A stretch of 37,684 nucleotides of DNA from an uncultured Candidatus Saccharibacteria bacterium (GCA_964361905.1 CAYICK010000001.1:1-37684), one strand, 5' to 3'; shown: positions 4,423-35,935, counted from the first letter of the stretch. The notes: a model not told the origin generated them from the sequence alone. Numbers and translations: made by a program.

Positions 4423-4451
4423 TTGATTAAAATTGCCAGTTGTTGTATTAT
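4423..4451 (+). promoter_or_regulatory. Candidate promoter (TTGATT -17 bp- TATTAT) for the sugar transferase gene
   Basis: Hexamers at 4423-4428 and 4446-4451. The ATG at 4463 lies 11 nt after the -10 box. Confidence 0.3.
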
Positions 4452-4462
4452 ACTCCTTTGAT

Positions 4463-14692: not shown

Positions 14693-14885
14693 AATATCAA
14701 TCAATCAAGAGTGTATAGGATGCAACTTTTGCGAAAGTTGCGCCCCGACAATATTTCAAGTTGACCAAACGGATTTTAAATGCAAACTGAAAAAGGAAGG
14801 TAATTTTTCGCCTGAAGAACTGAAACAGATTAAAGAAGCGGCTGACGGTTGTCCCGTTAATGCAATTGAGTTAAATGAACAATAA
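14685..14885 (+). CDS. Small single-cluster ferredoxin ([4Fe-4S] or [3Fe-4S] type)
   Basis: 66 aa from ATG 14685. Motifs CIGCNFCESCAP and a distal GCPVNAI. It overlaps the upstream methyltransferase by 8 nt and the downstream GT by 11 nt. Confidence 0.8.
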   Translation: MTKISINQECIGCNFCESCAPTIFQVDQTDFKCKLKKEGNFSPEELKQIKEAADGCPVNAIELNEQ

Positions 14886-15891: not shown

Positions 15892-17420
15892 AAGTTATAT
15901 CAATAGGCACGGATAGGAAAATATTTGAAAAAAATTCTGATGTTCAGCAAAGGCTTATAGAATATGGGAAATTTTTTGATGAAATGCACGTGATTGTATT
16001 TAACAAACGAGACACGAAGAATGAGATAAAAATTACGAAAATAAGTGAAAATGTTTGGGCCCATCCAACAAACTCAAACAGCAAGCTGTTTTATGTTTGG
16101 GATGCATTTAAAATCTGCAAAAAAGTTTATAGTAATGATTTCATAGTAACTGTAGGCGATTCTTTTGAAACAGGTATGGTTGGTGTTTTGACAAAACTTT
16201 TTTTAGGGTTGCCTCTTCATGTACAAGTGCACACCGATTTGATGCATAAGTATTTTAGAAACTTGTCTGTTTTAAACAAGCTTCGTTTTTTTGTGTCCGA
16301 ATTTGTTTTAAGATACGCCGATAGGGTGAGAGTAGTTTCAGAAAGGATCAAGCAGTCCATAGAACAATTTTCCAAAAATATTGATGTCTTGCCTATACAA
16401 ACAAAATTGAAAGAAGAAAAGATTGAAAGATTGAAAGATTGGGAAAACATAAAAAATATTCTGACAGTGTGCAGATTGGAAAAAGAAAAAAATTTAGAAA
16501 CAGCAATTAAAGCTTTCAAAACTATTTCTGAAAAATTTCCAGAGGCCGTCTTTGCAATTGTTGGTGATGGTAGTGAACGAGAAAATCTTGAAAAATTTGT
16601 AGTAAAATTGGGATTGGAAAACAAAGTGGTTTTTGCTGGATGGCGAGACGATTTGGAAAAATATTATAGAAACGCGGATATTTACATTTCAACTTCTTTG
16701 TACGAGGGGTACGGTATTTCAACTGTAGAGGCTGCTTATTTTGGAAAGCCCTTAATTCTTTCCGAAACTGGAGTGGCCGGAGAAATTTTCAAAGATGGGG
16801 AGTCGGCTTTGGTTTGTGATGCTAAAGATACGGCTTGTTTTGCTAAAAATATTTTAAAAATTTATCAAAACAAAAATTTAGCTCAAAAAATGGGACAATC
16901 TGCAAAATTAGCAGCAGATAAACATTTAAATTCGGGAGTAAATTATTTCAGAGAATATGCCGATTCTGTTTTAAAAACAGCTGAAAGTTTCAAGAAAAGA
17001 GGTTTTGTTGCAAGGTTTCTTGATTTCAAAAAAACATTTTGGCATTCCTTCATATTTTTACGTTATTTGGTTTGCGGAGTTACTGCGGCGGTTGTAAATA
17101 TAAGCTCACTTTATGTTTTTACGGAAACTGCAGGTATCTGGTACCTGTATTCTTCTATTTTAGCGTTCTTTTTGGCTCTTATCGTAAGTTTCTCACTGCA
17201 GAAATTTGTGGTTTTTAAGGATAATGGAATGGAAAAAATGCATCATCAGTTTTCCAAATTCTTTGTAATCGCGGTTTTGGGGGTGGCGACGAACACTATT
17301 TTGGTGTTTGTTTGTGTTGAAGCTTTGGGTGTTTGGTATATTTTGTCGCAAATAATTGCTGGTATTTTCGTAATGTTCCAAAATTTCGCCTTTTACAAAC
17401 TTTTTATATTTAATAAATAA
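15888..17420 (+). CDS. Fusion protein: GT4 glycosyltransferase (aa 1-~370) + GtrA-like 4-TM domain (aa ~385-510)
   Basis: GT4 motifs CRLEKEKNLETAIKAF and STSLYEGYGISTVEAAYFGKPLILSETGVAGEIF. The C-terminal FLRYLVCGVTAAVVNISSLYVFTE plus three further hydrophobic helices match the GtrA family pattern. Confidence 0.8.
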   Translation: MKVISIGTDRKIFEKNSDVQQRLIEYGKFFDEMHVIVFNKRDTKNEIKITKISENVWAHPTNSNSKLFYVWDAFKICKKVYSNDFIVTVGDSFETGMVGVLTKLFLGLPLHVQVHTDLMHKYFRNLSVLNKLRFFVSEFVLRYADRVRVVSERIKQSIEQFSKNIDVLPIQTKLKEEKIERLKDWENIKNILTVCRLEKEKNLETAIKAFKTISEKFPEAVFAIVGDGSERENLEKFVVKLGLENKVVFAGWRDDLEKYYRNADIYISTSLYEGYGISTVEAAYFGKPLILSETGVAGEIFKDGESALVCDAKDTACFAKNILKIYQNKNLAQKMGQSAKLAADKHLNSGVNYFREYADSVLKTAESFKKRGFVARFLDFKKTFWHSFIFLRYLVCGVTAAVVNISSLYVFTETAGIWYLYSSILAFFLALIVSFSLQKFVVFKDNGMEKMHHQFSKFFVIAVLGVATNTILVFVCVEALGVWYILSQIIAGIFVMFQNFAFYKLFIFNK

Positions 17421-17423
17421 TAA

Positions 17424-18458
17424 ATGAGACTTTTAATTATTACTCAAAAAGTTGATAAAGAAGATCCGATTTTGGGCTTTTTCCATAATTGGATTCTGGA
17501 GCTTTCAAAAAAATTTGAAAAAATATCAGTTATTTGCCTGGAAAAGGGGAATTATAATCTACCCCAAAATGTCAGAGTATTTTCTTTGGGTAAAGAATCC
17601 GGCAGAAGCAAAATAAAATATGTAAATAATTTTCTAAATTTAATTCTTGGCTTACATAAAGAGTATGATTCTGTTTTTGTGCATATGAACCAAGAGTATA
17701 TTTTGCTGGGCGGATTTATCTGGAAAATTTTGAGAAAGAAAATTTATTTTTGGCGTAATCATCAATATGGAAATTTGTTGACCCAAATTGCCATCTGGTT
17801 TTCTAATAAAGTCTTTTACACTTCCAAATTTGCTTTTGTAACTAGATACAAAAAAGCATCTGTTATGCCGGTGGGTGTGGACATTGAAAGTTTTAAAGTT
17901 TTAAAGATTGAAAGATTAAAAAACTCAATTTTGTTTTTGGGTAGGATTGGCACCATCAAAAAACCGGACATTTTAATTGAAGCATTGGATATATTAAATA
18001 AAAAAAGAATTGATTTTAATTGCGATTTTTATGGAGATCCGCAATCGAAGGACGAAGAATACTATAATTTTCTAAAAAACAAAATTAAAGAATTTGGATT
18101 AAATAATAGGGTTAATTTCTATAAAGCGGTGCCAAATTATGAGACGCCAAAAATTTATAATGAACACGAAATTTTTGTTAATCTCACACCAACTGGTAGT
18201 TTTGATAAAACTATTTTAGAAGCGGCTGCTTGCGGCTGCATACCGATTATTGCAAATGAATCACTATCGGGAGAAATAGATAAAAGAATGATTTTAGAGA
18301 ACGACAAACCGGAGAGTGTTGCAAAAACAATAGAATTTTGGCTCAATGTAAGCAATGAAGAAAGAGTTGAAGCTTCAAAAAAACTCCAAAAATACGTTTT
18401 GGAAAATCACAGTTTAAGTGCTTTAATTGAAAGGCTATGTATCACAATAAAAAAATAA
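17424..18458 (+). CDS. GT-B fold glycosyltransferase, family 4-like
   Basis: 344 aa. Motifs ILFLGRIGTIKKPDILIEAL and FDKTILEAAACGCIPIIANE. Confidence 0.8.
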   Translation: MRLLIITQKVDKEDPILGFFHNWILELSKKFEKISVICLEKGNYNLPQNVRVFSLGKESGRSKIKYVNNFLNLILGLHKEYDSVFVHMNQEYILLGGFIWKILRKKIYFWRNHQYGNLLTQIAIWFSNKVFYTSKFAFVTRYKKASVMPVGVDIESFKVLKIERLKNSILFLGRIGTIKKPDILIEALDILNKKRIDFNCDFYGDPQSKDEEYYNFLKNKIKEFGLNNRVNFYKAVPNYETPKIYNEHEIFVNLTPTGSFDKTILEAAACGCIPIIANESLSGEIDKRMILENDKPESVAKTIEFWLNVSNEERVEASKKLQKYVLENHSLSALIERLCITIKK

Positions 18459-19153
18459 GCGTGGTTATACCCACCTATAACGAAGCAGAAAGCATAAAGG
18501 GAGTGATAGAGGAGTTTTTTAAAACCGGTTTGGTTGATGAAGTGGTGGTGGTTGATAATAATGCTCTAGGAAATACAGCAGAAGAAATAAAAAAGACTAA
18601 GGCGGTCTATGTGAAAGAAAGCGAAAAGCAAGGATACGGTTATGCTTTAATGAGGGGCATGCTTGAGGCGAAAGGGGATATTGTGGTAATGGTTGAGGCT
18701 GACGGCACTTTTTTACCGAAAGATATTGAGAAACTTTTGTCTTACAGTGATGAATTTGACGCGGTACTCGGTACTCGTACCTCGCGTTCGGCTATCTGGT
18801 CCGGAGCCTTTATGCCCTTCCCGGTGCGTTTCGGCAACTGGCTTTGGGCGAAAATAATTGAAGTTTTGTTTAATGGGCCGGTTTTGACAGATGTTGGCTG
18901 TACTTATAAATTGATTTCTAGAAAGGCTCTTGAAAAAATAAAACCACTCTTCCCGATGTCGAAAGGCGATGGCAAGTTTTCTCCTGAACTTATGATCTGG
19001 CTTATAAAGAAAAATATTTCTTTGATAGAAATCCCTGTTATTTTTAAAGAAAGGGTGGGGCAGTCAACTTATACCGGCAGTACTTGGAAAGCCGCCAAAT
19101 TGGGTATCAAGATGTTGCCCCTGATTATAAAGTATAAATTTAAAAAAATATAA
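18437..19153 (+). CDS. GT2 glycosyltransferase, Dpm1/ArnC-like (polyprenyl-phosphate sugar synthase type)
   Basis: 238 aa. Motifs ISVVIPTYNEAESI, VVVVDNNALGNT and VMVEADGTF. There is no TM segment. Confidence 0.82.
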   Translation: MYHNKKISVVIPTYNEAESIKGVIEEFFKTGLVDEVVVVDNNALGNTAEEIKKTKAVYVKESEKQGYGYALMRGMLEAKGDIVVMVEADGTFLPKDIEKLLSYSDEFDAVLGTRTSRSAIWSGAFMPFPVRFGNWLWAKIIEVLFNGPVLTDVGCTYKLISRKALEKIKPLFPMSKGDGKFSPELMIWLIKKNISLIEIPVIFKERVGQSTYTGSTWKAAKLGIKMLPLIIKYKFKKI

Positions 19154-20629
19154 ATGAACACAAAAAAGGAAAAAATAATCTTATTTTCCATTTTTATTTT
19201 AGCCATCTTTCTAATTACATTTCAATATACTGATACTCCAAGAGTCTGGATTGACGAGGGAGTATATACAAGTATTGCAAGAAGCGTAGCGGAAAGCGGA
19301 GTATTCGGGTTGCAGACTGAGCCGGGGAGTTTCTTTCAATTTGGAGCTTTGCTTACAACTAACTATCCTGCTATTTTTCCCGTGGCGGCATCCATCAAAC
19401 TTTTGGGTACAGGTGTATGGCAGGCTCGTTTGCCTATGATGCTTTACATGTTTGCCCTAGTTATCATTTTTTATTTATACACTAAAAAGAAATACGGTTT
19501 TTATCCTGCGATTTTGTCGGTTTTGATGCTCATTTCCTTTTCTCCTTTTTATGGCAACGGCCGGCCCGTCCAAGGAGAAGTTCCGGGGCTGGTCTTTTTA
19601 TGCTTGGGAGCCGTGATGCTTTTGTATTTTGAAGGAACCAATTTTGAAAATAAAAAATTTGCCGTGTTGGCAGGCCTGTCTTTAGGATTGGCCGCAGCCA
19701 CTAAACCCATTTATTTGCTTCTGCTTTGTGCAATCCTGCCCCTCTCTCTATTTTTTTGGATTAAGAAAATTAAGAATAAAAAAAATATATTGATACTCTT
19801 ATTGGCGTTTATCGTTCCAATATTTTTTTGGTTCGTGATAAATTTTCCGACTCTGGATTCAATTACAAAAATTATTCCAACGATGATTTTGCAATCCGGT
19901 AATAACAGCGCATCTTCTCTGTCTGGCACGTCTTTGCCACTTACAGAGACCGTTTCCGCAAATTTATTTAGATTTGTAAGCGAATCCACTCCCATACTTT
20001 TCACCTTTCTTTTTATTGCATCGATTTTTTTCTTCGGGCTAAAATACTTTAAAAAAGATAAATCAGATTTCAGTATATCCGAATTTATTTTGTTTTTTTT
20101 CATATTATTCAATTGGCTCGGTTACCTTATCGGGACAGGCTGGTATCGCTACTTTTTCCCGGCCAATATTTTGCTGTATTTATTTTTTCCGATAGCCGTC
20201 ATAGCTTTTGCAAAAACAATCAGTAATGGATATGTGAAAAAAATCGCGATGCTTGTTCCCGCAGTTTTAATACTGTTTCAGTTTTATCATTTAATTTTTC
20301 TTTCCGACACCTCCTTTTTTGTCTCGTATACTAGAAATATTACCCTTTTTCGGGCATTATCTGCTGTATCCCCGACCCAGAAAGTCTTTTTTTACAATTC
20401 TCCGGAAGCGGTGGTTTTTTTGGAAGGAAATAATTATTCTCAATACATCGCTTTTTCGGGGTTGTTTGAAGCGGGGGACAAAAACGCCCTAACTTACACA
20501 ACAAATGATTTTATTTTGACGGGAAACGATCCTAAATATGCAGATGTTGTTTCTCCTTGTTACACAAAAAAAGAATTTGATCGTTATTTTTTATTTCAAA
20601 AGACGATTAACTGCAAAAACAAAAAATGA
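19154..20629 (+). CDS. Multi-TM GT-C-type glycosyltransferase (ArnT/PMT family-like), paralog 1
   Basis: 491 aa with more than 10 hydrophobic helices. An acidic pair follows TM1 (RVWIDEGVY). The gene starts at the nucleotide after the GT2 stop. Confidence 0.72.
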   Translation: MNTKKEKIILFSIFILAIFLITFQYTDTPRVWIDEGVYTSIARSVAESGVFGLQTEPGSFFQFGALLTTNYPAIFPVAASIKLLGTGVWQARLPMMLYMFALVIIFYLYTKKKYGFYPAILSVLMLISFSPFYGNGRPVQGEVPGLVFLCLGAVMLLYFEGTNFENKKFAVLAGLSLGLAAATKPIYLLLLCAILPLSLFFWIKKIKNKKNILILLLAFIVPIFFWFVINFPTLDSITKIIPTMILQSGNNSASSLSGTSLPLTETVSANLFRFVSESTPILFTFLFIASIFFFGLKYFKKDKSDFSISEFILFFFILFNWLGYLIGTGWYRYFFPANILLYLFFPIAVIAFAKTISNGYVKKIAMLVPAVLILFQFYHLIFLSDTSFFVSYTRNITLFRALSAVSPTQKVFFYNSPEAVVFLEGNNYSQYIAFSGLFEAGDKNALTYTTNDFILTGNDPKYADVVSPCYTKKEFDRYFLFQKTINCKNKK

Positions 20630-20632
20630 AGT

Positions 20633-22093
20633 TTATTTTTTATCTAAAAATCCAAGAAAAAATCTGAATCCCTTAAGGTATCTTTTTATATCTTCCCAGC
20701 TATTTATTTTTTTTAACCGGCCCCAAATATATTTTGGCCGAAGATAAAATTCTTTCATGGCCATCTTTTCCATCGCCTCAATTTCTTCCTTGTTTTTGTA
20801 GCCATATGGCACGAAAACCGCATTCCAGATATTGTATTCGGAAAAATTTTTATTCAAGATTCCATATTTGGGCGCTTCTTCAAAAAGTTTCGTCCCTGGA
20901 TAAGGAGTGGTGATGCAAAACTGGGCATAATCGGGATTTAATTTTTTAGCAAAAGCTATCGTCTTTTTCGCCATTTCTGGAGTCTCTCCGGGCAGAGCAA
21001 TCATAAAAGATGCTCTGATTTCTATACCAACCTTCTTACAAAGCATATTGGCGATTTCTATCTGTTTAAGGGTTGTCCCTTTGCCTATGTTGTTTAAAAG
21101 TTCCTGACATCCCGACTCGTAGCCGAAAAAAATATTCCAACAACCCGCTTTTCTCATGCGACGGAGCATTTCTTCGTCAACGCAGTCAACCCGTGAATAG
21201 CAAGTCCAGGTAATATCAATTTTGTCTTTAATTAATAAATCGCAAAATTCGTATATCCATTTTTTATTGGCCGTCATCATGTCATCCCAAAAAGATATTT
21301 CTCTGATGCCGTAATTTTCCATTACATGCCGGATTTGTTCCACCACTCTTTTAGGACTCATAGCTCTGATTTTTCTGCCAAAAACGGAGTTGTTGGAGCA
21401 AAAACTGCAATTAAATGGACATCCTCTTATAACCACCATGTTTATCACAGGTGTCCTTTTATATTGGTTGGCTAGGGGAATATATTTATTCATCGACAAA
21501 AGATCCCAGGCGGGGAATGGCAGTTCGTCCAGATTTTGAATCAACTCTCTTGGGGGCGTGATCACAATTTCTTTTCCGTGCCTGAATACGATTCCTTTTA
21601 CGCTAGATAGAATATTGTAATTATTTAAAAATACATTTTTACTCCAAGTGCTGTTTTTGTATTTACTGATTATTTCTTCGGCCGTAAGCTCTCCCTCTCC
21701 GTAAACAATTAAATCAAAACAATCATTCTGTTCCAATATTTCCCTCGGTAAAATCGTGGCGTGATGTCCGCCCAAAATAATTAAAATTTCCGGCTTTCTT
21801 TTTTTCATTAGATCGGCAAATTCGACTGCTCGGTGAAAATTCGGAGTCAAGGCCGAAAGCCCTATGATTTTGGGGTCATACTCAAGCGCTTTTTCAACCA
21901 TTTGATCAGTTGAAAAATCTTCGGTCACGCCGTCAATCAAACCGACTTTAACTCCTTTTTCTCTGAGATAAGAAGAAAGCTGGGCGATTCCCAGGGGCGG
22001 CAAATTACCGCCGGTACCTTTTCCCACATTTCTGACGTATCTTTCGCTAACGGAAATTGGAGGATAAATAAATAAAATATCCATACTACTCAT
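20633..22093 (-). CDS. B12-binding-domain radical SAM enzyme (class-B-like), paralog 2
   Basis: 486 aa. Motifs ILGGHHATILPREIL, IVYGEGELTAEEI and IRGCPFNCSFCSN. The gene is convergent with GT-C paralog 1, with a 3-nt gap. Confidence 0.88.
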   Translation of the reverse strand: MSSMDILFIYPPISVSERYVRNVGKGTGGNLPPLGIAQLSSYLREKGVKVGLIDGVTEDFSTDQMVEKALEYDPKIIGLSALTPNFHRAVEFADLMKKRKPEILIILGGHHATILPREILEQNDCFDLIVYGEGELTAEEIISKYKNSTWSKNVFLNNYNILSSVKGIVFRHGKEIVITPPRELIQNLDELPFPAWDLLSMNKYIPLANQYKRTPVINMVVIRGCPFNCSFCSNNSVFGRKIRAMSPKRVVEQIRHVMENYGIREISFWDDMMTANKKWIYEFCDLLIKDKIDITWTCYSRVDCVDEEMLRRMRKAGCWNIFFGYESGCQELLNNIGKGTTLKQIEIANMLCKKVGIEIRASFMIALPGETPEMAKKTIAFAKKLNPDYAQFCITTPYPGTKLFEEAPKYGILNKNFSEYNIWNAVFVPYGYKNKEEIEAMEKMAMKEFYLRPKYIWGRLKKINSWEDIKRYLKGFRFFLGFLDKK

Positions 22094-22151
22094 AATAAAA
22101 TGACTTCTTCATATCTTTGCAAATAAGTATGGCATATAATACCATATTATA

Positions 22152-22871
22152 ATGTCAAAAAATATGCTTTCCATTATCATTCCGGCGTACAACGAGGAAT
22201 ACCGTATAACTAGGACTTTGTTGGATATCAAAAACACCCTGTCCGGACAATTCTTTGATTACGAAATTTTAGTGGTGAATGACGGCTCTTTGGATAATAC
22301 CGTTTTTGTCGTGGAAAAGTTAAAAAAACAAATTCCTAAGCTTCGTTTAATCGATAACAATAAAAATCACGGCAAAGGCTTCGCAGTTAAGGAAGGTATG
22401 CTTAAAGCCTCTGGTGATTTTCGGTTATTTATGGATGCTGATAATTCCACAAAAGTTTCGGAAATTATAAAAATACTCCCTTATTTTGCCCGGGGTTTTG
22501 ATATTATTATAGGTTCCAGGCGTCTCCCTGACTCTAAAGTTGTAATTGAACACAATTGGGTGAGAGACTTCCTGGGTTCTGTTTTCAGAATGCTTGTTCG
22601 CGTAATTGTTCCTTTGGGGGTTACCGATTCACAGTGTGGTTTTAAAATTTTTACAAAAAAGGCGGCAAATATGATATTCCCAGAACAGTCTGTACTTGGT
22701 TGGGCTTTTGATGTGGAGATTTTGGCTATTGCCAGAAAAAATAAATTAAAGATAAAAGAGGTTCCCGTTGTCTGGGAAAATAATGCAGACAGCCAAATGA
22801 ATTTTTCCGGTATGGTCAAATCCTTTTTTGAAATTATTAAAATCAGACTGAAGTTATGGAGAATAAAATGA
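22152..22871 (+). CDS. GT2 glycosyltransferase, Alg5/Dpm1/GtrB-like (polyprenyl-phosphate sugar synthase type)
   Basis: 239 aa. Motifs LSIIIPAYNEEYRI, ILVVNDGSLDNT, FMDADNST and DSQCGFKIF. Confidence 0.85.
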   Translation: MSKNMLSIIIPAYNEEYRITRTLLDIKNTLSGQFFDYEILVVNDGSLDNTVFVVEKLKKQIPKLRLIDNNKNHGKGFAVKEGMLKASGDFRLFMDADNSTKVSEIIKILPYFARGFDIIIGSRRLPDSKVVIEHNWVRDFLGSVFRMLVRVIVPLGVTDSQCGFKIFTKKAANMIFPEQSVLGWAFDVEILAIARKNKLKIKEVPVVWENNADSQMNFSGMVKSFFEIIKIRLKLWRIK

Positions 22872-24574
22872 CGAGATGGCTTCGCACAAGCGAGAAGGTT
22901 TTACCGGTTATTTTGGTGTTAGTTTTTATTTTAATGCGCTTGCCGGCAACTCATTCTCCTTATCACCAAGATGAATATAAATGGGTGCAATATTCTCATC
23001 CGGAAATAACACTACCTGGTACGGTACCTCATCCGCCGTTAACAGAATTTATCTATGCTGGTTCTTTGGGGCCTTTGGTTGGCGATGATAATTTTAGATT
23101 AATACCACTTGTTTTTGGTTTGATTAATCTGCTCCTTATTTTTTATCTGGCAAAAATTATTTTTGACCGGAAAGCCGCATTCTGGGTGGCTCTACTTTTT
23201 ACCGTTTCTTTTTATTCCGTTCTGGCCTCTCTTATGGTAGATGTGGATGGGGCAGTAATGCCGGCGTTCTTTTTAGTTATGTGTATCGGCTATTTCAAAT
23301 TAAAAAGAACGAATTTTCAATTTTCAATTTCCAATTTTCAAAACTGGATTTGGTTGGCGCTGATAATAGTCGGAGCGGTCGGAGGGTTTATGGTAAAAGT
23401 CAGCGGTATTCTGCCAATTTTCGCTTTATTTTTGGATTTTTCTATAGAAAAAGGCGTTTTTTCTGATAAAAAGAGAATTCTTAAATATGCGGGTCTGGGG
23501 TTATTGGGGCTTATTGGTTTGGTTGCGGTTTTGTTTTTGGCAAGGTTTGTTTTTCCGTTCTTCAACCTGGAGTATTCGTTCAATTATTGGAAACATTTTT
23601 GGACCGCATCCAGTTTTTTTAATAGGGGATGGATGCAGACTTTTATCCAATTTGCTAAGGCTATAATGTATACCTCGCCCCTATTGCTCTTGCCGGTATT
23701 TTTTATAGATAAAGAAATTTGGCGAAAACTTAGGCCCTTCTTTTTCTTTATTTTCATCGGTCTCGCATTCTATCTTTTTGCTTTTGATTTTTCTATCGGG
23801 GCGCTGGACAGATATTTCCAATTTTTAGTAGTACCTCTTTGTATTATTTCGGGGGCCGTATTCGCGAAAATATTTGGAAGCAAAGAAATAAAGTTAAAAA
23901 AAGAAGATTTTATTATTATATCCATAATAGCAATTTCAATTTTTGCTCTTCAGTTTTTCAATCATGTTGCGCCGCCACTTCATCCTAAGACGGAATGGAT
24001 AAGCAGATTCTTTTCTTTTAAGTGGAATTTCCTTTTCCCCTTTACCGGCGGATCCGGGCCTCTGGGTTTTTATATTTCTTTTCTTTTTTTGGCCATACTA
24101 TATATTTGTTCTATTGTTCTTGCGATTGCAATATTTATTAAAAAAGAGCTGAAGCAGAAAGTTTTCGTCGCAATTTTAATCATAGGTCTGATTTACAATT
24201 TTTCTTTTATCGAAGAATATCTTTTTGGCAAAATAAACGGTTTTGCTCCTAAATTGCTTTACGATGCCACGGAATTTATAAAAAACAATCCTGATATAAA
24301 AGCCGTAACGGTTTATAATGATAACGGAGGTTATGAAATAATGAAAATCGGGAAGTATAGAAGAAGGCTTTATACCAGCCCCGCTTTTGATGTAAATCAG
24401 AAAATAGCCACCTTAAATGCGACCAAAGATTATTACCTGGAAATAAATATTCCACGGATAGACCCAAACAGCGTTTTCAGGAAATATTTTGATTCATGCA
24501 ATATTGTTTATAAGCAAACTGACCGTTATATTTCTGCCATTGTTTACGATTGTAGAAATGCAACCAATTTATGA
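22868..24574 (+). CDS. Multi-TM GT-C-type glycosyltransferase (ArnT/PMT family-like), paralog 2
   Basis: About 568 aa from ATG 22868 (ATGA overlap with the GT2 stop); an in-frame ATG at 22856 is also possible. An acidic pair follows TM1 (SPYHQDEYKW). Many TM helices. Confidence 0.72.
   Translation: MTRWLRTSEKVLPVILVLVFILMRLPATHSPYHQDEYKWVQYSHPEITLPGTVPHPPLTEFIYAGSLGPLVGDDNFRLIPLVFGLINLLLIFYLAKIIFDRKAAFWVALLFTVSFYSVLASLMVDVDGAVMPAFFLVMCIGYFKLKRTNFQFSISNFQNWIWLALIIVGAVGGFMVKVSGILPIFALFLDFSIEKGVFSDKKRILKYAGLGLLGLIGLVAVLFLARFVFPFFNLEYSFNYWKHFWTASSFFNRGWMQTFIQFAKAIMYTSPLLLLPVFFIDKEIWRKLRPFFFFIFIGLAFYLFAFDFSIGALDRYFQFLVVPLCIISGAVFAKIFGSKEIKLKKEDFIIISIIAISIFALQFFNHVAPPLHPKTEWISRFFSFKWNFLFPFTGGSGPLGFYISFLFLAILYICSIVLAIAIFIKKELKQKVFVAILIIGLIYNFSFIEEYLFGKINGFAPKLLYDATEFIKNNPDIKAVTVYNDNGGYEIMKIGKYRRRLYTSPAFDVNQKIATLNATKDYYLEINIPRIDPNSVFRKYFDSCNIVYKQTDRYISAIVYDCRNATNL
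23312..23339 (+). repeat. Four tandem copies of heptanucleotide AATTTTC (third copy AATTTCC) inside the GT-C paralog 2 gene
   Basis: Direct reading: aattttc aattttc aatttcc aattttc. The unit length is not a multiple of 3. Confidence 0.9.
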
Positions 24575-25992
24575 AAAAAGTTTTATTGATTTATCCGACA
24601 AGTTCCATAGAAGCATTTTCACGTTCTAAAATTAGCGTTGCTATTCCGCTTATTCCCTATATTTCTTTAGCCAGTTTGGCTGGCGCCTTGCTTGCGGCAA
24701 AACAAGAAGTAAAAATTTTGGATTTGAGCGCTTCTTCCGAACCGGAACAAGAGTTTTATTCCATTATAAATGATTTTAAGCCGGATTATGCGGGTATAAG
24801 TTTTACCAGCGCCCTGAGTAAGGAAGCGGGCGAATTGGCGAAGAAAATTAAAGAGATAGATCAAAAGATTGTGGTGATTGGGGGCGGGGTTCATGCTACT
24901 ACATTGCCGGAAGAAACATTAAAAAAATACGATTTTGACATAGCGGTAGTTGGTGAAGGTGAAGAAACTATAGTTGAGATAGTCAATGGTAAAAATCTAA
25001 AGGATATTTTAGGCATTGTTTATAAAGACAAAGATGGGATTCATTCCAATTCTCGCCGGCCGCTCATTGCAAATTTGGATGATTTACCTATGCCCGCTTG
25101 GCATCTTTATAATCTGTCCAAATACCATACCCCAAGGATTAATGCCAGAAAAAACCCGGTAGGAGCGATAGAAACAAGTCGAGGGTGTCCTTTCGGTTGC
25201 TGTTTTTGCAATAAAACTGTTTTTGACAAAGTTTTTAGAGCCAAGTCGCCGAAGCGGGTCGTTGATGAAATGGAAGCAATGTTAAGCCTTGGTTTTAAGG
25301 AAATTCACATCTGGGAAGATGGTTTTTCAACCAATTTGAATAGAGCCAAAGATATTTGCCGTCTGATTATAAAGAGAGGGCTGCACTTTCCTTGGAATAT
25401 ATATAACGGAATGAGAATAGACCGTTTGGATGAGGAGTTGTTAAGGCTTCTGAAAGAGGCGGGGTGTTACCGCACCAGTATCGGTGTTGAGTCTGGCAAT
25501 GAAAAAGTTTTGTCCGGTTTGGGCAAAAATATTACTTTGAATCAGATAAGAAGGTCAGTAAAACTTATAAAAAAATCCGGTGTTGAATCGCTGGGGTTTT
25601 TTATGGTTGGTTTGCCGGGGGATACCGAAGAATCTATGCGGGATACTATTAATTTTGCCAAGGAACTGAATCTTGATTTAGCCAAGGTGGGGATTTTGAT
25701 GCCTCTCCCCGGGACGCCTGTTTTTGCGGATTGGGATAAAAAAGGGCTTATTGTTTCCAAAGATTGGTCAAAGTATATTTTCCACGCAGATATTAGTCCT
25801 GTTTATAAACACCCCAATTTGGATTACAAAACAATTCGCCGGTATTACGATAAGTTTTATCAGGAACTTTATCTCAGCCCCAAATTCATTGCAAAAAGAT
25901 TGTGGCGCGGATTGAAAACCGGCGATGTTATATGGGATGCTTATTATTTTTTAAAAACATTACCACATGGATGGTTCTCAAAAAAAGAATAA
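24571..25992 (+). CDS. B12-binding-domain radical SAM enzyme (class-B-like), paralog 3
   Basis: 473 aa. Motifs VIGGGVHATTLPEETL, AVVGEGEETIVEI and SRGCPFGCCFCNK. ATGA overlap with GT-C paralog 2. Confidence 0.88.
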   Translation: MKKVLLIYPTSSIEAFSRSKISVAIPLIPYISLASLAGALLAAKQEVKILDLSASSEPEQEFYSIINDFKPDYAGISFTSALSKEAGELAKKIKEIDQKIVVIGGGVHATTLPEETLKKYDFDIAVVGEGEETIVEIVNGKNLKDILGIVYKDKDGIHSNSRRPLIANLDDLPMPAWHLYNLSKYHTPRINARKNPVGAIETSRGCPFGCCFCNKTVFDKVFRAKSPKRVVDEMEAMLSLGFKEIHIWEDGFSTNLNRAKDICRLIIKRGLHFPWNIYNGMRIDRLDEELLRLLKEAGCYRTSIGVESGNEKVLSGLGKNITLNQIRRSVKLIKKSGVESLGFFMVGLPGDTEESMRDTINFAKELNLDLAKVGILMPLPGTPVFADWDKKGLIVSKDWSKYIFHADISPVYKHPNLDYKTIRRYYDKFYQELYLSPKFIAKRLWRGLKTGDVIWDAYYFLKTLPHGWFSKKE

Positions 25993-27397
25993 AAAGGCTG
26001 TTATCATAGGCGCAGGACCGGCTGGTCTGGCCGCAGGATACGAACTCAGTAAGCATGGGGTCGAAACTGTTATTTTGGAAAAAAGCGATTCCGTCGGTGG
26101 CTTAGCCAGAACTATCGAACATGAAGGATATCTTTTTGATGTCGGTCCTCATCGTTTTTATACCAAGAGCAAGATAGTGGGGGATTTGTGGCAAAACCTT
26201 CTGGGGCCGGATTTTTTAATTGTTCCTCGGTTGACCAGAATTTTTTACCGCAAAAAATTTTTTTCTTATCCGGTTAAACCTTTTCAAGTTTTGTTGAATT
26301 TGGGGCCAGTGACCAGTGCCTTGGTTATGATAAGTTACATAAAATCCAAAATTTCCCTCCGCAATCTCAAGCCCAAAACTTTTGAAGAATGGATAACAAA
26401 AAATTTCGGTTCGCGTCTCTTTGAAATGTTTTTTAAAACTTATACCGAAAAAGTGTGGGGTATTCCTTGTGATCAAATCGGCGCGGAATGGGCGTCGCAA
26501 AGAATTAAAAACTTGAGCTTCTGGTCAACCCTGTGGAACGCTTTTGGCAGCATAAAAGGCAAAGATGTCAAAAGTTTGATTGAAGAGTTTAATTATCCCA
26601 AGTACGGCGCGGGTATGATGTATGAAAAAATGGCGGAAGAAATAAAAAAAAATGGCGGGCAAATCCTATTTGGCGAAGATGTCAGCTCAATTGAATACAA
26701 AGATAATCAAATAATTTCTGTAACCAGCCGTGGAGCGATTGGCGGGAATAAAAAATGGCAAGCGGGTTATTTTTTTTCCAGTATGCCCATGACCGAGCTG
26801 GTTAAAAAAATGTCACCTATACCTTTGCCGGAAATTGGTAAAGCTGCAAATAGTCTTTATTTTCGGTCTCATATAGCGGTTAATTTGATAGTAAAAAAAG
26901 CAAATCCTTTCCCCGATAATTGGATATACATACACGAACCTGATATAAAAATGGCGAGACTGTCTAATTTCAAGAATTTTTCAAAGCATATGTCCAAAGA
27001 TGACAATACTCCGGTCTGCTGTGAATATTTTGTTTTTAAAGATGATGAAATGTGGCGTAAATCAGATGAAGAACTTAAAATTTTGGCCTCTAATGAACTG
27101 GAAAAATTGGGTTTTTTGGAGGAAGGCGATGTTGTGGGGGGATTTGTGGTCCGTGAAGAGTTTGCATACCCGACTTATTACATAGGGCACAAAAAACCTT
27201 TTGAAATGATTAAAAATTTTTTCAGGAAGTTTAAAAATATTACACTTATAGGACGAGGAGGCACGTACCGTTATAACAATCAGGATCACTCTTTGGAAAT
27301 GGGAATCTTGGCCGCCAGGAGTATTATTGAGAGCAAGGAATATGATTTGGATAAAATAGGGGACGAGCAAGAATATTATGAAGAACATAAAGGATAG
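25967..27397 (+). CDS. FAD/NAD(P)-binding flavoprotein oxidoreductase (amine-oxidase / UDP-galactopyranose-mutase / HemY-like superfamily)
   Basis: 476 aa with the dinucleotide-binding motif KAVIIGAGPAGLAAGYELSKHG..ILEK. It overlaps rSAM paralog 3 by 26 nt. Confidence 0.78.
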   Translation: MDGSQKKNKKAVIIGAGPAGLAAGYELSKHGVETVILEKSDSVGGLARTIEHEGYLFDVGPHRFYTKSKIVGDLWQNLLGPDFLIVPRLTRIFYRKKFFSYPVKPFQVLLNLGPVTSALVMISYIKSKISLRNLKPKTFEEWITKNFGSRLFEMFFKTYTEKVWGIPCDQIGAEWASQRIKNLSFWSTLWNAFGSIKGKDVKSLIEEFNYPKYGAGMMYEKMAEEIKKNGGQILFGEDVSSIEYKDNQIISVTSRGAIGGNKKWQAGYFFSSMPMTELVKKMSPIPLPEIGKAANSLYFRSHIAVNLIVKKANPFPDNWIYIHEPDIKMARLSNFKNFSKHMSKDDNTPVCCEYFVFKDDEMWRKSDEELKILASNELEKLGFLEEGDVVGGFVVREEFAYPTYYIGHKKPFEMIKNFFRKFKNITLIGRGGTYRYNNQDHSLEMGILAARSIIESKEYDLDKIGDEQEYYEEHKG

Positions 27398-29771
27398 AAA
27401 TAAAATTCTGGCTTTGATTTTTATCACGCTGGCTATTTATCTGCCTTTTTATTTTTGGACTATCAAAACAGCTGATCTTCAGACTGCAAATGGTTCTGCT
27501 GTTGTATTACCAGTTGTGGGAGAAGATTCTTTGGAATATAAGATATTGGCGGAAAATATGATTTCAGCTAAACAATTCTCATTGGATTCATTAGCGCCTT
27601 CTGTACTAGAGACCTTTCGTACGCCAGGTTACCCTCTTTTCCTGGCTTTTTTTAAAACAATTTTTAATAATTATTGGCTGGCGACACTTGTTCAGATCAT
27701 GCTCACGGCTTTGACGGCTGTCATTATCTTCAAAATCGGCCAAAAAATATTCAATTGGCAAACCGGATTTGTCGCCGCTCTTCTCTATATAATCGAGCCG
27801 TCTGTCATTATGCAAAGCATCCTCGTTTTATCGGATAATTTGTTTATGTTTTTATTTATACTCTTTATCTATCTCCTGTTTTTTGCGGAGAAACATCATG
27901 CCTGGTTCATTGCCGGTTCGGCTGGGGCCGTACTGGGAGTGGCCACTTTGGTCAGGCCGGTTTCGGTTTTCATACTCATTCTTCTTGCCCCGTTATATTG
28001 GCTGATTGAAAAGAAAAATATTCCTATTAAAAAAATAATACTTGTATTTGGTACTGTTGCAGTGTGTTATTTGGTAGTGGTCGTACCTTGGATGGCCAGG
28101 AATTATAAAGTGAGTCGTGTTTTCAACATCTCTTCTTTGATCGCTTTTAACCCGATTTATTACAATGTGCCGGATTTTTTGTCTTCTAAATCAAGCAAGA
28201 GTCCGGATTATTTCAGAGCGCAGCTTATAGGCGAAGCGGGTGATCTTTCGGAGAGGGAGTTGCGTTCGCTTTCAAATTCAGACAGGATTTTGGCAGTCGC
28301 TTTAAAATATATAAAAGAAGATCCTGTCGGCTATTTAAAATTCCATTTGATTAAAACTCCACCCTTCTTCTTTTCGTCAAGTATAAAAACTTTTCAAGAT
28401 TTTTCCAGCCGGCTTCTTCCGAGCAATAAAATATCTTCCGATATTCAAACCCATAAAGCCATTCTTTCCGATCTTTTTGCTAAAGGGCAGTTTGTGGATA
28501 TGTTTGGTGTCATTATGAAATCAGCCTGGTACATCACTTTTGAGAGAATATTGTGGTTAGTAATATTATTTTTATCTTTTGTTCCCTTGTTATTTAAGAA
28601 ACAAAGATTGTATGCTGTTCTTTTTCTTTCCTTAATTTTTTATTTCGCTCTGCTTACTGGCCCGGTGGCTTATGCCAGGTACAGGTTGCCGGCCGAACCT
28701 TTCATGTTTCTTTTGGCATCAATTGGAGGAGCTATGATAATAAAATATTTATATGGTATTCTGGTAATTATGAGAAAGACTCTGGGAGTGTTTACTGACA
28801 AAAATTCAGGCATATTTCACCGTTTTACGGATTTTTTTCGGGGTATCTTCATTAACACAACTGAAGACAAACGCCCCAAAATACTCATAACCGGCGGATT
28901 GGGTTTTATTTTCTCGCACGTTACGGAATATTATGTGAAAAAAGGATGGAACGTCGTTGTTATAGACAACCAATCGGAAGGCTCGCACCCGGAAATCATA
29001 GACGGATCTTTTAAATATCACAATTTTCACGTTGCAGATCCTAAAGTGGTTGATATTATTCTTAGAGAAAATCCGGATTATGTGATACACGCTGCGGCCA
29101 TATCTGATGTAGACTATTCTATTCGCGAATCGTATAGGACGCTCAAAAAAAATATAATGATGAATATAAATGTTTTTGATGCCTGCAGGCAATTAAAAAA
29201 TTTGAAGAAGTTTATTTATGTGGCAACGGATGAAGTCTATGGAGAATGCGATCACAAAAAAAGAGAAGATGAGGTCATGTCTCCCAGAAATCCATATTCA
29301 TGTTCAAAAGCGACAGGCTCTCTCATAAGGATTGCTTACGATAGTACTTATTCAGAGTTGAAGAACAAAACAGCAGAGACAAGATTTTGCAATGTATTTG
29401 GTCCAAGGCAGGATGAAAGGAAAATAATGGGGGCGATAAAAAAATCTTTAAAAACGGGCGACTCCATTCCGCTTCATAATGAAGGTACGGGTTTCCGCGA
29501 ATATATTTACGTCAAAAATATACCGCCGGCAGTTGATTTGATTTTGGAAAAAGGCAATCAAGTTTATAATGTAACTCTGAATAATGGCTATACTGTGAGG
29601 CAACTCTTGCAAAAAGTTGAGGAGGTAACCGGCAACAAAATAAATACTTACTCAAATAACCGACCAGGTATGGATATGAAATATCAAATGGACAACTCGC
29701 GCATATTGGGTCTTGGCTGGGAACCTCTCTATACGTTTGAAGAAGGATTAAAAGAATATTTATTATCATGA
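27378..29771 (+). CDS. Fusion protein: GT-C-type membrane glycosyltransferase (aa 1-~460) + NAD-dependent 4,6-dehydratase/epimerase-type SDR (aa ~490-797)
   Basis: The N-terminal multi-TM part has GEDSLEYK after TM1 and TFRTPGYPLFLAFF (PMT_2-like). The C-terminal part has KILITGGLGFIFSHV (GxxGxxG), YVATDEVYGEC and PYSCSKATG (YxxxK). One uninterrupted ORF, with an internal in-frame ATG at 28770. Confidence 0.8.
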   Translation: MKNIKDRNKILALIFITLAIYLPFYFWTIKTADLQTANGSAVVLPVVGEDSLEYKILAENMISAKQFSLDSLAPSVLETFRTPGYPLFLAFFKTIFNNYWLATLVQIMLTALTAVIIFKIGQKIFNWQTGFVAALLYIIEPSVIMQSILVLSDNLFMFLFILFIYLLFFAEKHHAWFIAGSAGAVLGVATLVRPVSVFILILLAPLYWLIEKKNIPIKKIILVFGTVAVCYLVVVVPWMARNYKVSRVFNISSLIAFNPIYYNVPDFLSSKSSKSPDYFRAQLIGEAGDLSERELRSLSNSDRILAVALKYIKEDPVGYLKFHLIKTPPFFFSSSIKTFQDFSSRLLPSNKISSDIQTHKAILSDLFAKGQFVDMFGVIMKSAWYITFERILWLVILFLSFVPLLFKKQRLYAVLFLSLIFYFALLTGPVAYARYRLPAEPFMFLLASIGGAMIIKYLYGILVIMRKTLGVFTDKNSGIFHRFTDFFRGIFINTTEDKRPKILITGGLGFIFSHVTEYYVKKGWNVVVIDNQSEGSHPEIIDGSFKYHNFHVADPKVVDIILRENPDYVIHAAAISDVDYSIRESYRTLKKNIMMNINVFDACRQLKNLKKFIYVATDEVYGECDHKKREDEVMSPRNPYSCSKATGSLIRIAYDSTYSELKNKTAETRFCNVFGPRQDERKIMGAIKKSLKTGDSIPLHNEGTGFREYIYVKNIPPAVDLILEKGNQVYNVTLNNGYTVRQLLQKVEEVTGNKINTYSNNRPGMDMKYQMDNSRILGLGWEPLYTFEEGLKEYLLS

Positions 29772-35804: not shown

Positions 35805-35935
35805 TTATTTGAATATTACCCCGATTCCGGCCCAATTTTGATTAGGATTTTCAATTAATTCTTTGCAATTCTTGCCAACTTTAATTTCGTCCCAAAATTT
35901 ATCCGCATCGCATCTTTCTCTGTGTTTGCACACAT
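35805..35935 (-). repeat. Copy 2 of the 131-bp direct repeat (functional 3' end of the 502-aa methyltransferase gene)
   Basis: Offset is exactly 1633 nt from copy 1, with 9 mismatches (6 synonymous, 3 non-synonymous in the shared frame). Confidence 0.9.

Follow-up and report, generated by a model that had tools for sequence, protein, structure and literature searches.

Radical SAM proteins with B12-binding domains lie beside polyprenyl-phosphate-type glycosylation genes in Parcubacteria and other phyla

Introduction

Could a radical S-adenosylmethionine (SAM) enzyme be a working part of a cell-surface glycosylation system? The question is raised by a 37,684-nucleotide stretch of DNA deposited under an uncultured Candidatus Saccharibacteria bacterium (GCA_964361905.1, CAYICK010000001.1:1-37684), the whole of which we call the window. 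Between positions 18437 and 25992 it encodes, twice in succession, a family 2 glycosyltransferase (GT2), a multi-span membrane glycosyltransferase of the GT-C type and a radical SAM protein with a B12-binding domain (rSAM). The original prediction for this region, made from the sequence alone, read the repeat as two duplicated triads, each a functional unit, and held that no described system of the kind has a radical SAM partner. We find that the core GT2/GT-C system is of the ordinary Gtr/Arn/PMT-like kind, and that the repeated-triad geometry is, judged by gene order in relatives, a local rearrangement. The new part is an uncharacterised clade of B12-domain rSAM proteins that gene neighbourhoods appear to tie functionally to GT2/GT-C glycosylation genes; in this respect the prediction survives, strengthened.

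Glycosylation by means of a polyprenyl-phosphate sugar and a GT-C enzyme is universal and serves O antigens, teichoic acids, mycobacterial arabinan and protein O-mannosylation. Few diversifiers of the lipid-linked donor are known: the ArnD deformylase, DprE1/E2 and an epimerase of the short-chain dehydrogenase/reductase (SDR) type. Bacteria of the Candidate Phyla Radiation (CPR) and DPANN archaea depend on cell-cell contact with their hosts, and their envelopes are almost unstudied.

Among the catalogued B12-domain radical SAM enzymes, none belongs to a GT2/GT-C glycosylation system (2026 review). The combination of a B12-rSAM with GT-C, polyprenyl or CPR glycosylation was not found in our literature search either, which is weak evidence, since the coverage was mostly of non-subscription sources. 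The claim that no described version has an rSAM partner thus stands insofar as none turned up; it was too strong in view of two precedents, HpnI/HpnJ and calditol synthase (Cds).

Results

The six open reading frames (ORFs) of the region, their coordinates and junctions and the motifs quoted for them were all confirmed in the sequence. GT2_1 (18437..19153, plus strand, 238 aa) abuts GTC_1 (19154..20629, plus strand), the TAA of the one meeting the ATG of the other at 19153/19154, as read from the sequence. GTC_1 converges with rSAM_1 (20633..22093, minus strand) across a 3-nt gap (20629 to 20633). GT2_2 (22152..22871, 239 aa), GTC_2 (22868..24574) and rSAM_2 (24571..25992) follow on the plus strand, with ATGA overlaps at 22868 (GT2_2/GTC_2) and 24571 (GTC_2/rSAM_2). 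The GTC_2 start at 22868 is that of the public gene call (P0121, 100% identical, 568 aa); an alternative ATG lies upstream at 22856. Pfam places both GT2s in PF00535 (GT2_1 4.8e-24, 85.6 bits; GT2_2 4.1e-28, 98.9 bits; cut-off 23.3 bits) and both membrane proteins in PMT_2 (GTC_1 35.5 bits, GTC_2 32.1 bits; cut-off 26.1). The rSAM proteins match B12-binding (rSAM_1 7.7e-25, rSAM_2 2.4e-18; 67-88 bits) and Radical_SAM (2.1e-23 and 2.4e-25; 84-90 bits), and carry the motifs GGHHATILP / GGGVHATTLP, GEGE in both, and CPFNCSFC / CPFGCCFC. The predicted fold assignments (GT2, GT-C and B12-rSAM) agree with these profiles and with the structure models of GTC_2 and rSAM_2 described below.

Linkage of the rSAM family to glycosylation genes was assessed in two collections of loci, numbered with the prefix L. 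Set 1 holds 84 species-representative loci from many phyla (L001-L085; L004, a duplicate of L003, was omitted), and set 2, an independent sample, about 80 metagenome loci related to rSAM_1. Annotation used iterated profiles seeded with the window proteins on crude ORF calls, and the decay of gene density with distance inside the same flanks (0-1.5 kb vs 5-10 kb) served as the control. In set 1 the density of GT2 genes was 1.41 per 10 kb within 1 kb of the rSAM gene vs 0.10-0.16 at 6-10 kb, and that of GT-C genes 0.92 vs 0.19-0.32 per 10 kb over the same distances. The enrichment near rSAM was 6.1-fold for GT2 (p=9e-8) and 3.6-fold for GT-C (p=5e-4). GT4 genes, also a glycan-island family, were flat (0.6-fold, not significant). 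GT2 enrichment was replicated in set 2 (2.3-fold, p=0.012). The association of the rSAM family with GT2 is real and broad, extending across many phyla and much wider than the original prediction had supposed; the linkage to GT-C was found in set 1.

Combinations of rSAM, GT2 and GT-C genes recur in Woese-, Pace- and Nanoarchaeota, Omnitrophota, Elusimicrobia, Vicinamibacterales, Actinomycetes and Bathyarchaeia (L048). A Woesearchaeota locus (L001) reads SDR, NTP-transferase, GT2 (232 aa), PMT_2, FAD oxidase, rSAM, rSAM, PMT_2, and a Pacearchaeota locus (L005) GT2 (232 aa), 549-aa multi-span membrane protein, rSAM, rSAM, SDR. Compact sets of an rSAM, a GT2 of 250-300 aa and one or two PMT_2 GT-Cs of 550-630 aa occur in Vicinamibacterales/Acidobacteriota (L046, L053, L054, L057, L059, L071), in an Actinomycetes metagenome-assembled genome (L044) and in L060, with rSAMs 26-33% identical. 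Because such sets are present in soil Acidobacteriota and Actinobacteria, the association reaches beyond CPR and DPANN. GT2–rSAM pairs were seen in Planctomycetota (L002, a GT2 of 245 aa immediately 5' of the rSAM), Brocadia, Omnitrophota, Flavobacteria, SAR324 and Desulfobacteraceae. The GT2s adjacent to rSAM genes did not separate clearly as a distinct GT2_2-like subclade: GT2s at all distances are mostly nearer to GT2_2.

The rSAM family itself is large. rSAM_2 has 1219 homologs at E<1e-20, and homologs at about 50% identity come from Parcubacteria, Woese-/Pace-/Nanoarchaeota, Elusimicrobia, Omnitrophota and Planctomycetota. Tandem arrays of B12-domain rSAM paralogs, with few or no glycosylation genes, were observed on metagenome contigs, namely L127 (9 copies), L120 (6), L100, L126, L141 and L105.

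Adjacency could in principle be incidental, the rSAMs acting on a peptide, a cofactor or RNA and accumulating in variable islands. Models for ApyD, which acts on a ribosomally synthesised and post-translationally modified peptide (RiPP), and for the P-methylase PhpK match at 140-210 bits, many related loci are tandem arrays lacking glycosylation genes (L127, L120, L100 and L126 among them), and about three quarters of the loci have no GT2 within 1 kb of the rSAM (one is present in 21/84 in set 1 and 17/79 in set 2). However, GT2 enrichment decays with distance in two independent samples and GT4 shows none. Two particular pairs, rSAM_1 with GT2_2 and rSAM_2 with a UDP-galactopyranose mutase (UGM)-like gene, outlast rearrangement and span the divide between bacteria and archaea. 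Nor is there a precursor-peptide-like or cofactor-pathway gene among the 30 window ORFs covered by the Pfam annotation, a scan from which small ORFs were left out. We regard incidental adjacency as very improbable.

The two gene sets are far apart in sequence. rSAM_1 and rSAM_2 are 38% identical, GT2_1 and GT2_2 28%, and BLAST found no match to one another among the three GT-C domains of the window, the third being GTC_3, encoded downstream. At such identities the two sets are best taken as ancient paralogs. In related Parcubacteria the genes follow the order GT4::GtrA – GT4c – GT2_1 – GTC_2 – GTC_1 – GT2_2, with identities to the window proteins, in that order, of 60, 73, 88, 69, 60 and 65% in L171 and 31, 44, 74, 63, 60 and 62% in L172; L088 has GT2_1–GTC_2–GTC_1. 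Of the first two genes, GT4::GtrA (15888..17420, plus strand) encodes a GT4 (Pfam Glycos_transf_1, 2.1e-39) fused to a GtrA/DPMS-type transmembrane domain (GtrA_DPMS_TM, PF04138, 5.7e-21, residues 392-508) and is syntenic in L087, L088, L089 and L171; GT4c (17424..18458, plus strand; Glycos_transf_1 6.5e-18), a GT4 glycosyltransferase, is the conserved upstream neighbour of GT2_1, with orthologs at 73% in L171 and L089. Orthologs of GT2_1 (69-88%) stand immediately 5' of GTC_2 orthologs in L086-L089, L171 and L172, and GTC_1 orthologs (43-60%) come after GTC_2 orthologs in L088, L171 and L172. In the relatives, then, the neighbour GT2 of GTC_2 is GT2_1, not GT2_2, and both GT-Cs lie side by side. 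The order in the window, GT2_1–GTC_1–rSAM_1(−)–GT2_2–GTC_2–rSAM_2, is not kept even in the closest relatives; on the strength of this synteny it is a local rearrangement of the backbone, and its likeness to a repeated triad is a matter of chance.

The rSAM genes come and go in these loci. L171 has an rSAM_1 ortholog (83%) on the opposite strand, convergent with the GT2_2 ortholog, and L172 has the equivalent backbone without rSAM_1, which makes L171 vs L172 a natural with/without pair for this gene. No B12-rSAM was found within 6 kb of the GTC_2 ortholog in L086, L087 or L088, where class-I methyltransferase genes take up similar places. The closest relative, L089, has at other positions an ortholog of rSAM_0 (a third B12-domain rSAM of the window) with a ferredoxin, plus an unrelated B12-rSAM with a methyltransferase. 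By these comparisons the rSAM genes are optional, present or absent independently of the backbone GT2_1-GTC_2-GTC_1-GT2_2.

These observations bear on the notion of two obligate GT2/GT-C/rSAM triads, duplicated en bloc and each with its own specificity. The order GT2 - GT-C - rSAM does occur twice running, with genes abutting or overlapping, and so the repeat of order and fold holds locally. It is not conserved in relatives, however, and the copies are highly divergent: the paralog identities are very low (38% and 28%), and the GT-Cs have no mutual BLAST match. Relatives pair GT2_1 with GTC_2, place the GT-Cs next to each other and have or lack the rSAMs independently, and in the window itself rSAM_1 is on the opposite strand. 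Neither the triad as a functional unit nor an en-bloc duplication yielding two specificities fits this evidence, and we hold the duplicated-triad reading to be the least probable of those considered.

Class-I SAM methyltransferase genes are interleaved with GT2/GT-C genes in relatives that lack the rSAMs (L086 7700-8599, L087 5349-5996), and a class-I methyltransferase gene follows a B12-rSAM gene at 13976-14692 in the window and at 14361-14993 in L089. It seems that, as accessories of the backbone, ordinary methylation and radical SAM tailoring can stand in for each other.

GT2_2 is ALG5/DPMS-like, resembling polyprenyl-phosphate hexose synthases. Its matches in the PDB are a Dol-P-Man synthase (Pyrococcus DPMS, 5mlz; 7.2e-17 over residues 5-231), GtrB (3.8e-14) and ArnC, and it has thousands of Patescibacteria homologs at 55-69% identity, named dolichyl-phosphate beta-glucosyltransferase in their source. 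GT2_1, likewise similar to polyprenyl-phosphate sugar synthases, matches 5mlz (2e-11) and ArnC, with the N-terminal ~115 residues alone aligning; its top NCBIfam matches are AglJ and Dol-P-hexose transferase. Both GT2s are far below the cut-offs of the curated equivalogs (AglJ 86 vs 325; PgfS 74 vs 500; ArnC 40-46 vs 529). We predict that both belong to the polyprenyl-phosphate sugar synthase type.

The AlphaFold2 model of GTC_2, built with 38 orthologs, has a pLDDT of 89 and a pTM of 0.90. Foldseek returned ArnT first (5f15/5ezm; prob 1.0, TM-score 0.50-0.56), then STT3, AglB, ALG9/12, PMT1 and EmbB, and the top ~30 PDB matches are all GT-C enzymes or homologs. GTC_2 is accordingly described as an ArnT/PMT-like GT-C with a C-terminal extracytoplasmic domain, and GTC_1 as a PMT_2/ArnT-like membrane glycosyltransferase. 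A profile of 50 GT-C-like neighbours, including both window proteins, matches ArnT at 5.1e-29, then PMTs and oligosaccharyltransferases; on profile evidence GTC_1 is assigned the GT-C fold too. H33-Q34-D35-E36 is invariant in the 38 GTC_2 orthologs, and D35 is the sole near-invariant column (at least 90%) across the 50 divergent GT-Cs. Both GT-Cs carry an acidic pair after the first transmembrane helix (WIDEGVY in GTC_1, HQDEYKW in GTC_2). Enzymes of the ArnT and PMT types have catalytic acidic residues just after this helix, at the position of D35. Drift of the custom hidden Markov model as it grew from 9 to 25 to 50 members was considered and rejected: 43 of the 50 match Pfam PMT_2 independently, and the significant PDB matches are solely GT-C. 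In GTC_2, C544 and C562 are invariant among orthologs and fall within the beta-rich C-terminal domain, which would suit a disulfide bond within an extracytoplasmic domain that binds the acceptor.

Taken together, the two GT2s, the GtrA domain on the GT4 and the GT-Cs are predicted to make up the full three-part set of a Gtr-type extracytoplasmic glycosylation system. The GtrA domain of GT4::GtrA is a candidate for the flippase or membrane anchor of this three-component system. The logic of a lipid-linked donor in the original prediction is upheld by the solved relatives of the GT2s, by the GT-C fold and by the GtrA domain.

The rSAM proteins, in keeping with the original prediction, fall outside the characterised families, every NCBIfam equivalog being far below its cut-off. 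HpnJ (TIGR03471) scored best, at 250.3 bits for rSAM_1 and 205.9 for rSAM_2 (cut-off 577.6), followed by BchE (TIGR02026; 246.5 and 178.1 bits, cut-off 481). With 106 and 113 bits, AprD4 (NF033070; cut-off 500) matched no more than the core domain, and the models for ApyD, PhpK, ladderane-type lipid rSAM, QCMT, BzaD and AprD4 all score below HpnJ and BchE. Membership in the HpnJ, BchE, AprD4, PhpK, QCMT and ladderane-type families was rejected, every score being under the curated cut-off. By Pfam, the 30 window ORFs include no family of a hopanoid context (shc, hpnH, hpnI, hpnK) and match no bacteriochlorophyll-pathway family.

The best-scoring family brings in another reading. In it, the GT2 and the rSAM would together produce an altered head group on a glycolipid, after the manner of HpnI/HpnJ and calditol synthase, or the rSAM would act on the chain of the polyprenyl or membrane lipid itself; the GT-Cs, though encoded in the same envelope island, would stand outside the pathway. 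HpnJ is the top curated family for both proteins, a ring contraction of a hexose bound to a membrane lipid has been proposed for HpnJ and Cds, and the model for lipid-biosynthesis B12 rSAMs (TIGR04072) scores 130-139 bits. GT2-rSAM pairs without a GT-C exist in L002, L030, L031, L043, L050 and L051. Yet the HpnJ scores are under half of the cut-off and about equal to those of BchE, a likeness at the level of the superfamily, and the 30 annotated ORFs contain no hopanoid or lipid-synthesis gene. GT-C genes are enriched beside rSAM in set 1 (p=5e-4), and the nearest solved relatives of the GT2s use a polyprenyl phosphate acceptor. Altogether this reading appears improbable to us.

The AlphaFold2 model of rSAM_2 (pLDDT 91) has AprD4 as its best fold match (TM-score 0.77/0.80), followed in Foldseek by TsrM, MgmA/QCMT (9ccb), OxsB, CysS and TokK (E ~1e-20 to 1e-26). 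AprD4 is also the best PDB match by sequence (E=4.9e-25), over residues 158-394, which are the radical SAM core only; it has a related Rossmann domain and binds no cobalamin (2026 review). C206/C210/C213 of rSAM_2, together with C263 and C299, are invariant across 22 clade members, rSAM_1 included. C263 and C299 could be hydrogen-atom donors that quench a radical or ligands of an extra centre. By analogy the possible chemistries are rearrangement or ring contraction (HpnJ, Cds, OxsB), dehydration followed by reduction (AprD4/AprD3), C-methylation and epimerisation. With HpnJ and BchE as the closest families and cobalamin-free AprD4 as the closest structure, methylation is not to be assumed, and C-methylation, the first reaction named by the original prediction, loses its place as the default.

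AprD4 is a radical 1,2-diol dehydratase whose substrate is an aminoglycoside sugar, and its position as top structural match of rSAM_2 favours the main rival explanation, that the rSAMs tailor nucleotide sugars before the GT2 acts, by dehydration and SDR reduction in the manner of AprD4/AprD3 or by C-methylation in the manner of GenK. An SDR gene lies within 2.5 kb in 5/18 loci of the close clade and is rare farther away; L003 has SDR-SDR-rSAM without a GT2; and the genes directly downstream in the window, for a UGM homolog, an SDR domain and a DegT-type aminotransferase, all encode nucleotide-sugar enzymes. On the other side, the sequence likeness to AprD4 is confined to the radical SAM core (NF033070, 113 vs 500), and SDR enrichment is not significant overall (p=0.09 and 0.68) whereas GT2 enrichment is. 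Moreover, GT2_2 orthologs (61-65%) occur without an adjacent rSAM, so the donor of GT2_2 is probably a common nucleotide sugar. We think tailoring of nucleotide sugars unlikely, though with about half the weight of the explanation that we favour.

Two finer pairings emerge from the loci. rSAM_1 lies beside GT2_2 in divergent orientation in the window, convergent in L171 and in tandem in L099 (54% and 41% identity), and a Nanoarchaeia locus (L014) has an rSAM_1-like gene (39%) adjoining a GT2_2-like gene (30%). rSAM_2 overlaps the UGM-like gene by 26 nt in the window. L090 has both (rSAM_2 71%, UGM-like 61%) in the order 595-aa membrane protein – GT2 – rSAM – UGM-like, and in the DPANN loci L001, L009 and L014 the UGM-like gene is adjacent to, or one gene from, the rSAM_2-like gene. 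We therefore take GT2_2 as the predicted partner of rSAM_1 and the UGM homolog as that of rSAM_2.

This UGM homolog (25967..27397, plus strand), a FAD protein, had been listed as a flavoprotein in the original prediction, which is correct; more specifically it is homologous to UGM over its full length. It aligns with eukaryote-type UGMs of the PDB (2e-25), over residues 9-451 with the T. cruzi enzyme 4dsg, and belongs to the uncharacterised NCBIfam PRK07208.1-4 (592 bits vs a cut-off of 389). The UGM equivalog TIGR00031 gave 52.8 bits vs a cut-off of 303.75, and GLF was under the Pfam cut-off. We accordingly treat it as a member of a UGM-like family whose function is putative. UGM-like genes lie at 11662-13119 in L087, 10635-12113 in L088 and 11434-12834 in L090. 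In Parcubacteria the UGM-like gene and a PMT_2 GT-C form a conserved, often overlapping pair, even where there is no rSAM (L087, L088), which hints at a furanose sugar delivered by the GT-C.

The genes described here belong to a surface-glycan island in a bacterium of the Parcubacteria (Patescibacteria); the nearest relatives of the window are Parcubacteria, e.g. Candidatus Zambryskibacteria. The island extends from about 11.4 to 33.5 kb (roughly 22 kb), is tightly packed and nearly all on the plus strand, and contains several GT4s. Its third B12-domain radical SAM protein, rSAM_0 (12492..13979, plus strand; B12-binding 9.4e-21, Radical_SAM 7.1e-24), is 30-32% identical to rSAM_1 and rSAM_2. 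Directly after it come a class-I SAM-dependent methyltransferase (13976..14692, plus strand; Methyltransf_11 7e-17) and a small single-cluster [4Fe-4S] ferredoxin (14607..14885, plus strand; Fer4_13 5.9e-11, residues 33-88), whose real start is probably downstream of 14607. In L089 the ferredoxin ortholog (59%) stands immediately after the rSAM_0 ortholog (76%), adjoining it. It is plausible that the ferredoxin at 14607..14885 is an electron donor for the rSAM enzymes.

Downstream of the UGM homolog is the GTC_3::SDR fusion (27378..29771, plus strand), which has PMT_2 (1.9e-12, residues 82-238; 48.1 bits against the cut-off of 26.1) and Epimerase (8.5e-44, residues 502-732) domains. The PMT_2 domain (residues ~80-240) is followed by later transmembrane helices and, at residues 500-797, by a 4,6-dehydratase/epimerase-like SDR, which scores 178 bits with dTDP-glucose 4,6-dehydratase TIGR01181, below the cut-off of 365. 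Since an NAD enzyme must be cytoplasmic, the topology of the GT-C in the fusion is constrained. Relatives keep the GT-C (L087, L088) and the SDR (61% match in L171) as separate genes; the single ORF may be an assembly or frameshift artefact. A sugar aminotransferase of the DegT/DnrJ/EryC1 type follows (29768..30802, plus strand; Pfam 5.2e-73), and a Bac_transf phosphoglycosyl transferase is encoded upstream, at 4433-5800 (Pfam).

At the far end of the island are two minus-strand genes, for a LamG/concanavalin-like protein that looks secreted and has a C-terminal K1-capsule-lyase domain (34314-35699) and for a protein with two tandem Methyltransf_24 domains resembling CmcI/rhamnosyl O-methyltransferase (35805-37313). 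Just upstream of its first GT4, the ORF at 9656-11356 has weak Pfam matches (2-6e-4) to coupling-protein ATPases like TraG/VirD4/TrwB, and a T4SS-DNA_transf-type gene occupies the equivalent position in L088 (1-218). This suggests that the island keeps a conserved synteny with the gene of a secretion or competence ATPase. At the very start of the window lies the 3' end of a 23S rRNA of bacterial type (1-229; Rfam model positions 2683-2925, 183 bits), followed by a complete 5S rRNA (496-601, 78 bits), and so the island lies ~10 kb downstream of an rRNA operon. These were the sole Rfam matches in the window, which gave no cobalamin riboswitch, a possible pointer to B12 dependence, and ARAGORN found no tRNA in it. 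A promoter and terminator scan, aimed at the transcription units around the divergent rSAM_1/GT2_2 junction, yielded 58 promoter-like sites vs 59.7 in shuffled sequence, and terminator-like sites (27 vs 19.3 ± 3.8 shuffled) defined no transcription units.

Discussion

As far as fold and family go, the sequences and models show a multi-copy three-component system of the GtrABC / CsbB-YfhO / Dpm1-PMT type. The short cytoplasmic GT2_1 and GT2_2 would charge polyprenyl phosphate with a hexose taken from a nucleotide sugar, the GtrA-type membrane domain fused to the GT4 would aid in presenting or flipping the product, and GTC_1, GTC_2 and GTC_3 would transfer its sugar to acceptors at the membrane's outer surface. 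With somewhat better than even confidence, we propose that to this GtrABC/PMT-like system is added an auxiliary rSAM that edits a cytoplasmic sugar intermediate, likeliest the polyprenyl-phosphate sugar. Because a radical SAM enzyme needs SAM and a low-potential reductant, it must act in the cytoplasm, before export; the ferredoxin encoded nearby would feed it. The edit might be a ring rearrangement, deoxygenation, C-methylation or epimerisation of the polyprenyl-phosphate-linked sugar, and a donor-tolerant GT-C would pass the remodelled sugar on.

The polyprenyl-phosphate sugar is favoured as the substrate because GT2 is the strongest and most reproducible neighbour of the rSAM genes. The occurrence of GT2_2 orthologs (61-65%) both with and without an adjacent rSAM speaks for a downstream edit of the product of a common donor. 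Precedents point the same way: HpnI/HpnK/HpnJ and calditol synthase deal with a lipid-linked hexose, and the optional epimerase of a Citrobacter system acts on an undecaprenyl-phosphate (undP) sugar before export. The partnership of rSAM_2 with the UGM homolog suggests that this branch uses a furanose-type sugar.

Several observations weigh against a polyprenyl-phosphate-linked substrate or against any tie to the GT-Cs. The linkage to GT-C was not significantly replicated in set 2, the loci are phylogenetically non-independent, their ORF calling is crude, and GT2 is a common family. An Elusimicrobia locus (L003) has two SDRs and a SPASM rSAM with no GT2, and no GT2 is within reach of the close rSAM_2 relatives in L011, L012 and L016; such GT2-less relatives would be just as compatible with a nucleotide sugar as the substrate. 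The GT-C orthologs show much the same degree of conservation whether or not an rSAM is present, so that they give no sign of an altered donor. Cobalamin binding and use by rSAM_1 and rSAM_2 are putative, and cobalamin synthesis is not known from Parcubacteria. The substrate we propose for the rSAMs is drawn from adjacency and precedent only.

More generally, the HpnJ/BchE-like B12-rSAM clade, with relatives also in Acidobacteriota and Actinomycetes, may serve three-component glycosylation systems as an auxiliary fourth member that, at the cytoplasmic face, remodels the polyprenyl-phosphate-linked sugar by radical chemistry prior to its flipping and its transfer by the GT-C; in the rSAM_2 branch this sugar may be a furanose formed with the help of the UGM-like partner. 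We offer this wider proposal tentatively, at rather less than even confidence. If it is true, a function is found for one of many B12-domain rSAM clades that are orphans and are conspicuously abundant among CPR bacteria and the DPANN archaea, and the surface sugar, whether carbocyclic, ring-contracted, deoxygenated or C-methylated, would be new to cell-envelope glycans. Were rSAMs to edit the lipid-linked donor, the chemical space of surface sugars would be much larger, and the coming and going of rSAM genes would make the surface glycan more diverse, much as that of the SDR epimerase does in the Citrobacter pentofuranose system.

AprD4, of the AprD4/AprD3 pair that carries out the C3'-deoxygenation of apramycin, shares with rSAM_2 a full-length fold and has a sugar substrate. 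AprD4 acts together with a reductase that uses NAD(P)H, and in the close rSAM clade SDR genes are often found alongside. It differs in that AprD4 is without cobalamin, whereas the N-domains of the window proteins match Pfam B12-binding strongly. The sugar C-methyltransferases GenK, GenD1, Fms7 and MoeK5 have the same B12-binding and Radical_SAM architecture and carbohydrate substrates, and MoeK5 probably acts on a sugar linked to a lipid phosphoglycerate. MoeK5 is catalogued as a Csp3-methyltransferase (2026 review). No specific sequence relationship to these four was found, however; the models for KedN5, TsrM and RiPP C-methyltransferases score below HpnJ and BchE, and the four belong to antibiotic pathways rather than to cell-surface GT2/GT-C systems.

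In the pathway to bacteriohopanetetrol cyclitol ether, the glycosyltransferase HpnI, then HpnK and then the radical SAM enzyme HpnJ act in turn, with a proposed ring contraction of a lipid-linked hexose. The resemblance of HpnI/HpnK/HpnJ and of Cds to the window system lies in a glycosyltransferase that puts a hexose on a membrane lipid and an rSAM proposed to remodel the sugar; rSAM_1 and rSAM_2 align with HpnJ over nearly their full length. Against this, their scores are far below the cut-off, hopanoid genes are missing, and the GT2s resemble polyprenyl-phosphate synthases, not HpnI. The presence of GT-Cs, unlike in the HpnI/HpnJ pathway, implies that the sugar is passed on and not kept as a head group.

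In the Arn system the product of a GT2 (ArnC) is modified at the cytoplasmic face by the ArnD deformylase before flipping, and is transferred by a GT-C (ArnT), the top fold match of GTC_2. Yet the GT2s score 40-46 vs 529 with the ArnC equivalog, ArnD is a hydrolase and not a radical enzyme, and a lipid A acceptor is not expected in Parcubacteria.

A further close parallel is provided by the Gtr-type systems (GtrA/GtrB/GtrC, CsbB/GtcA/YfhO, PgfS/PgfM and the PPPRS/MATE/GT136 system of Citrobacter), in which a GT2-type synthase, a GtrA-type component and a GT-C are encoded together, as here. The window GT2s are without the C-terminal membrane helices of GtrB and ArnC, and the GtrA domain forms one protein with a GT4. 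The Citrobacter O-antigen system has an optional epimerase in the cytoplasm (ORF13) that turns undP-ribofuranose (undP-Ribf) into undP-xylofuranose (undP-Xylf) ahead of export; its GT-C accepts both donors, and the serotype switches when the auxiliary gene is acquired or lost (Kelly et al. 2024, PMC11127046). The window system shares with it multiple gene copies within a glycan island and an optional cytoplasmic auxiliary enzyme that is gained and lost while the synthase and the GT-C stay; in the window, the auxiliary is a B12-domain rSAM in place of an SDR or a DprE1/E2 epimerase.

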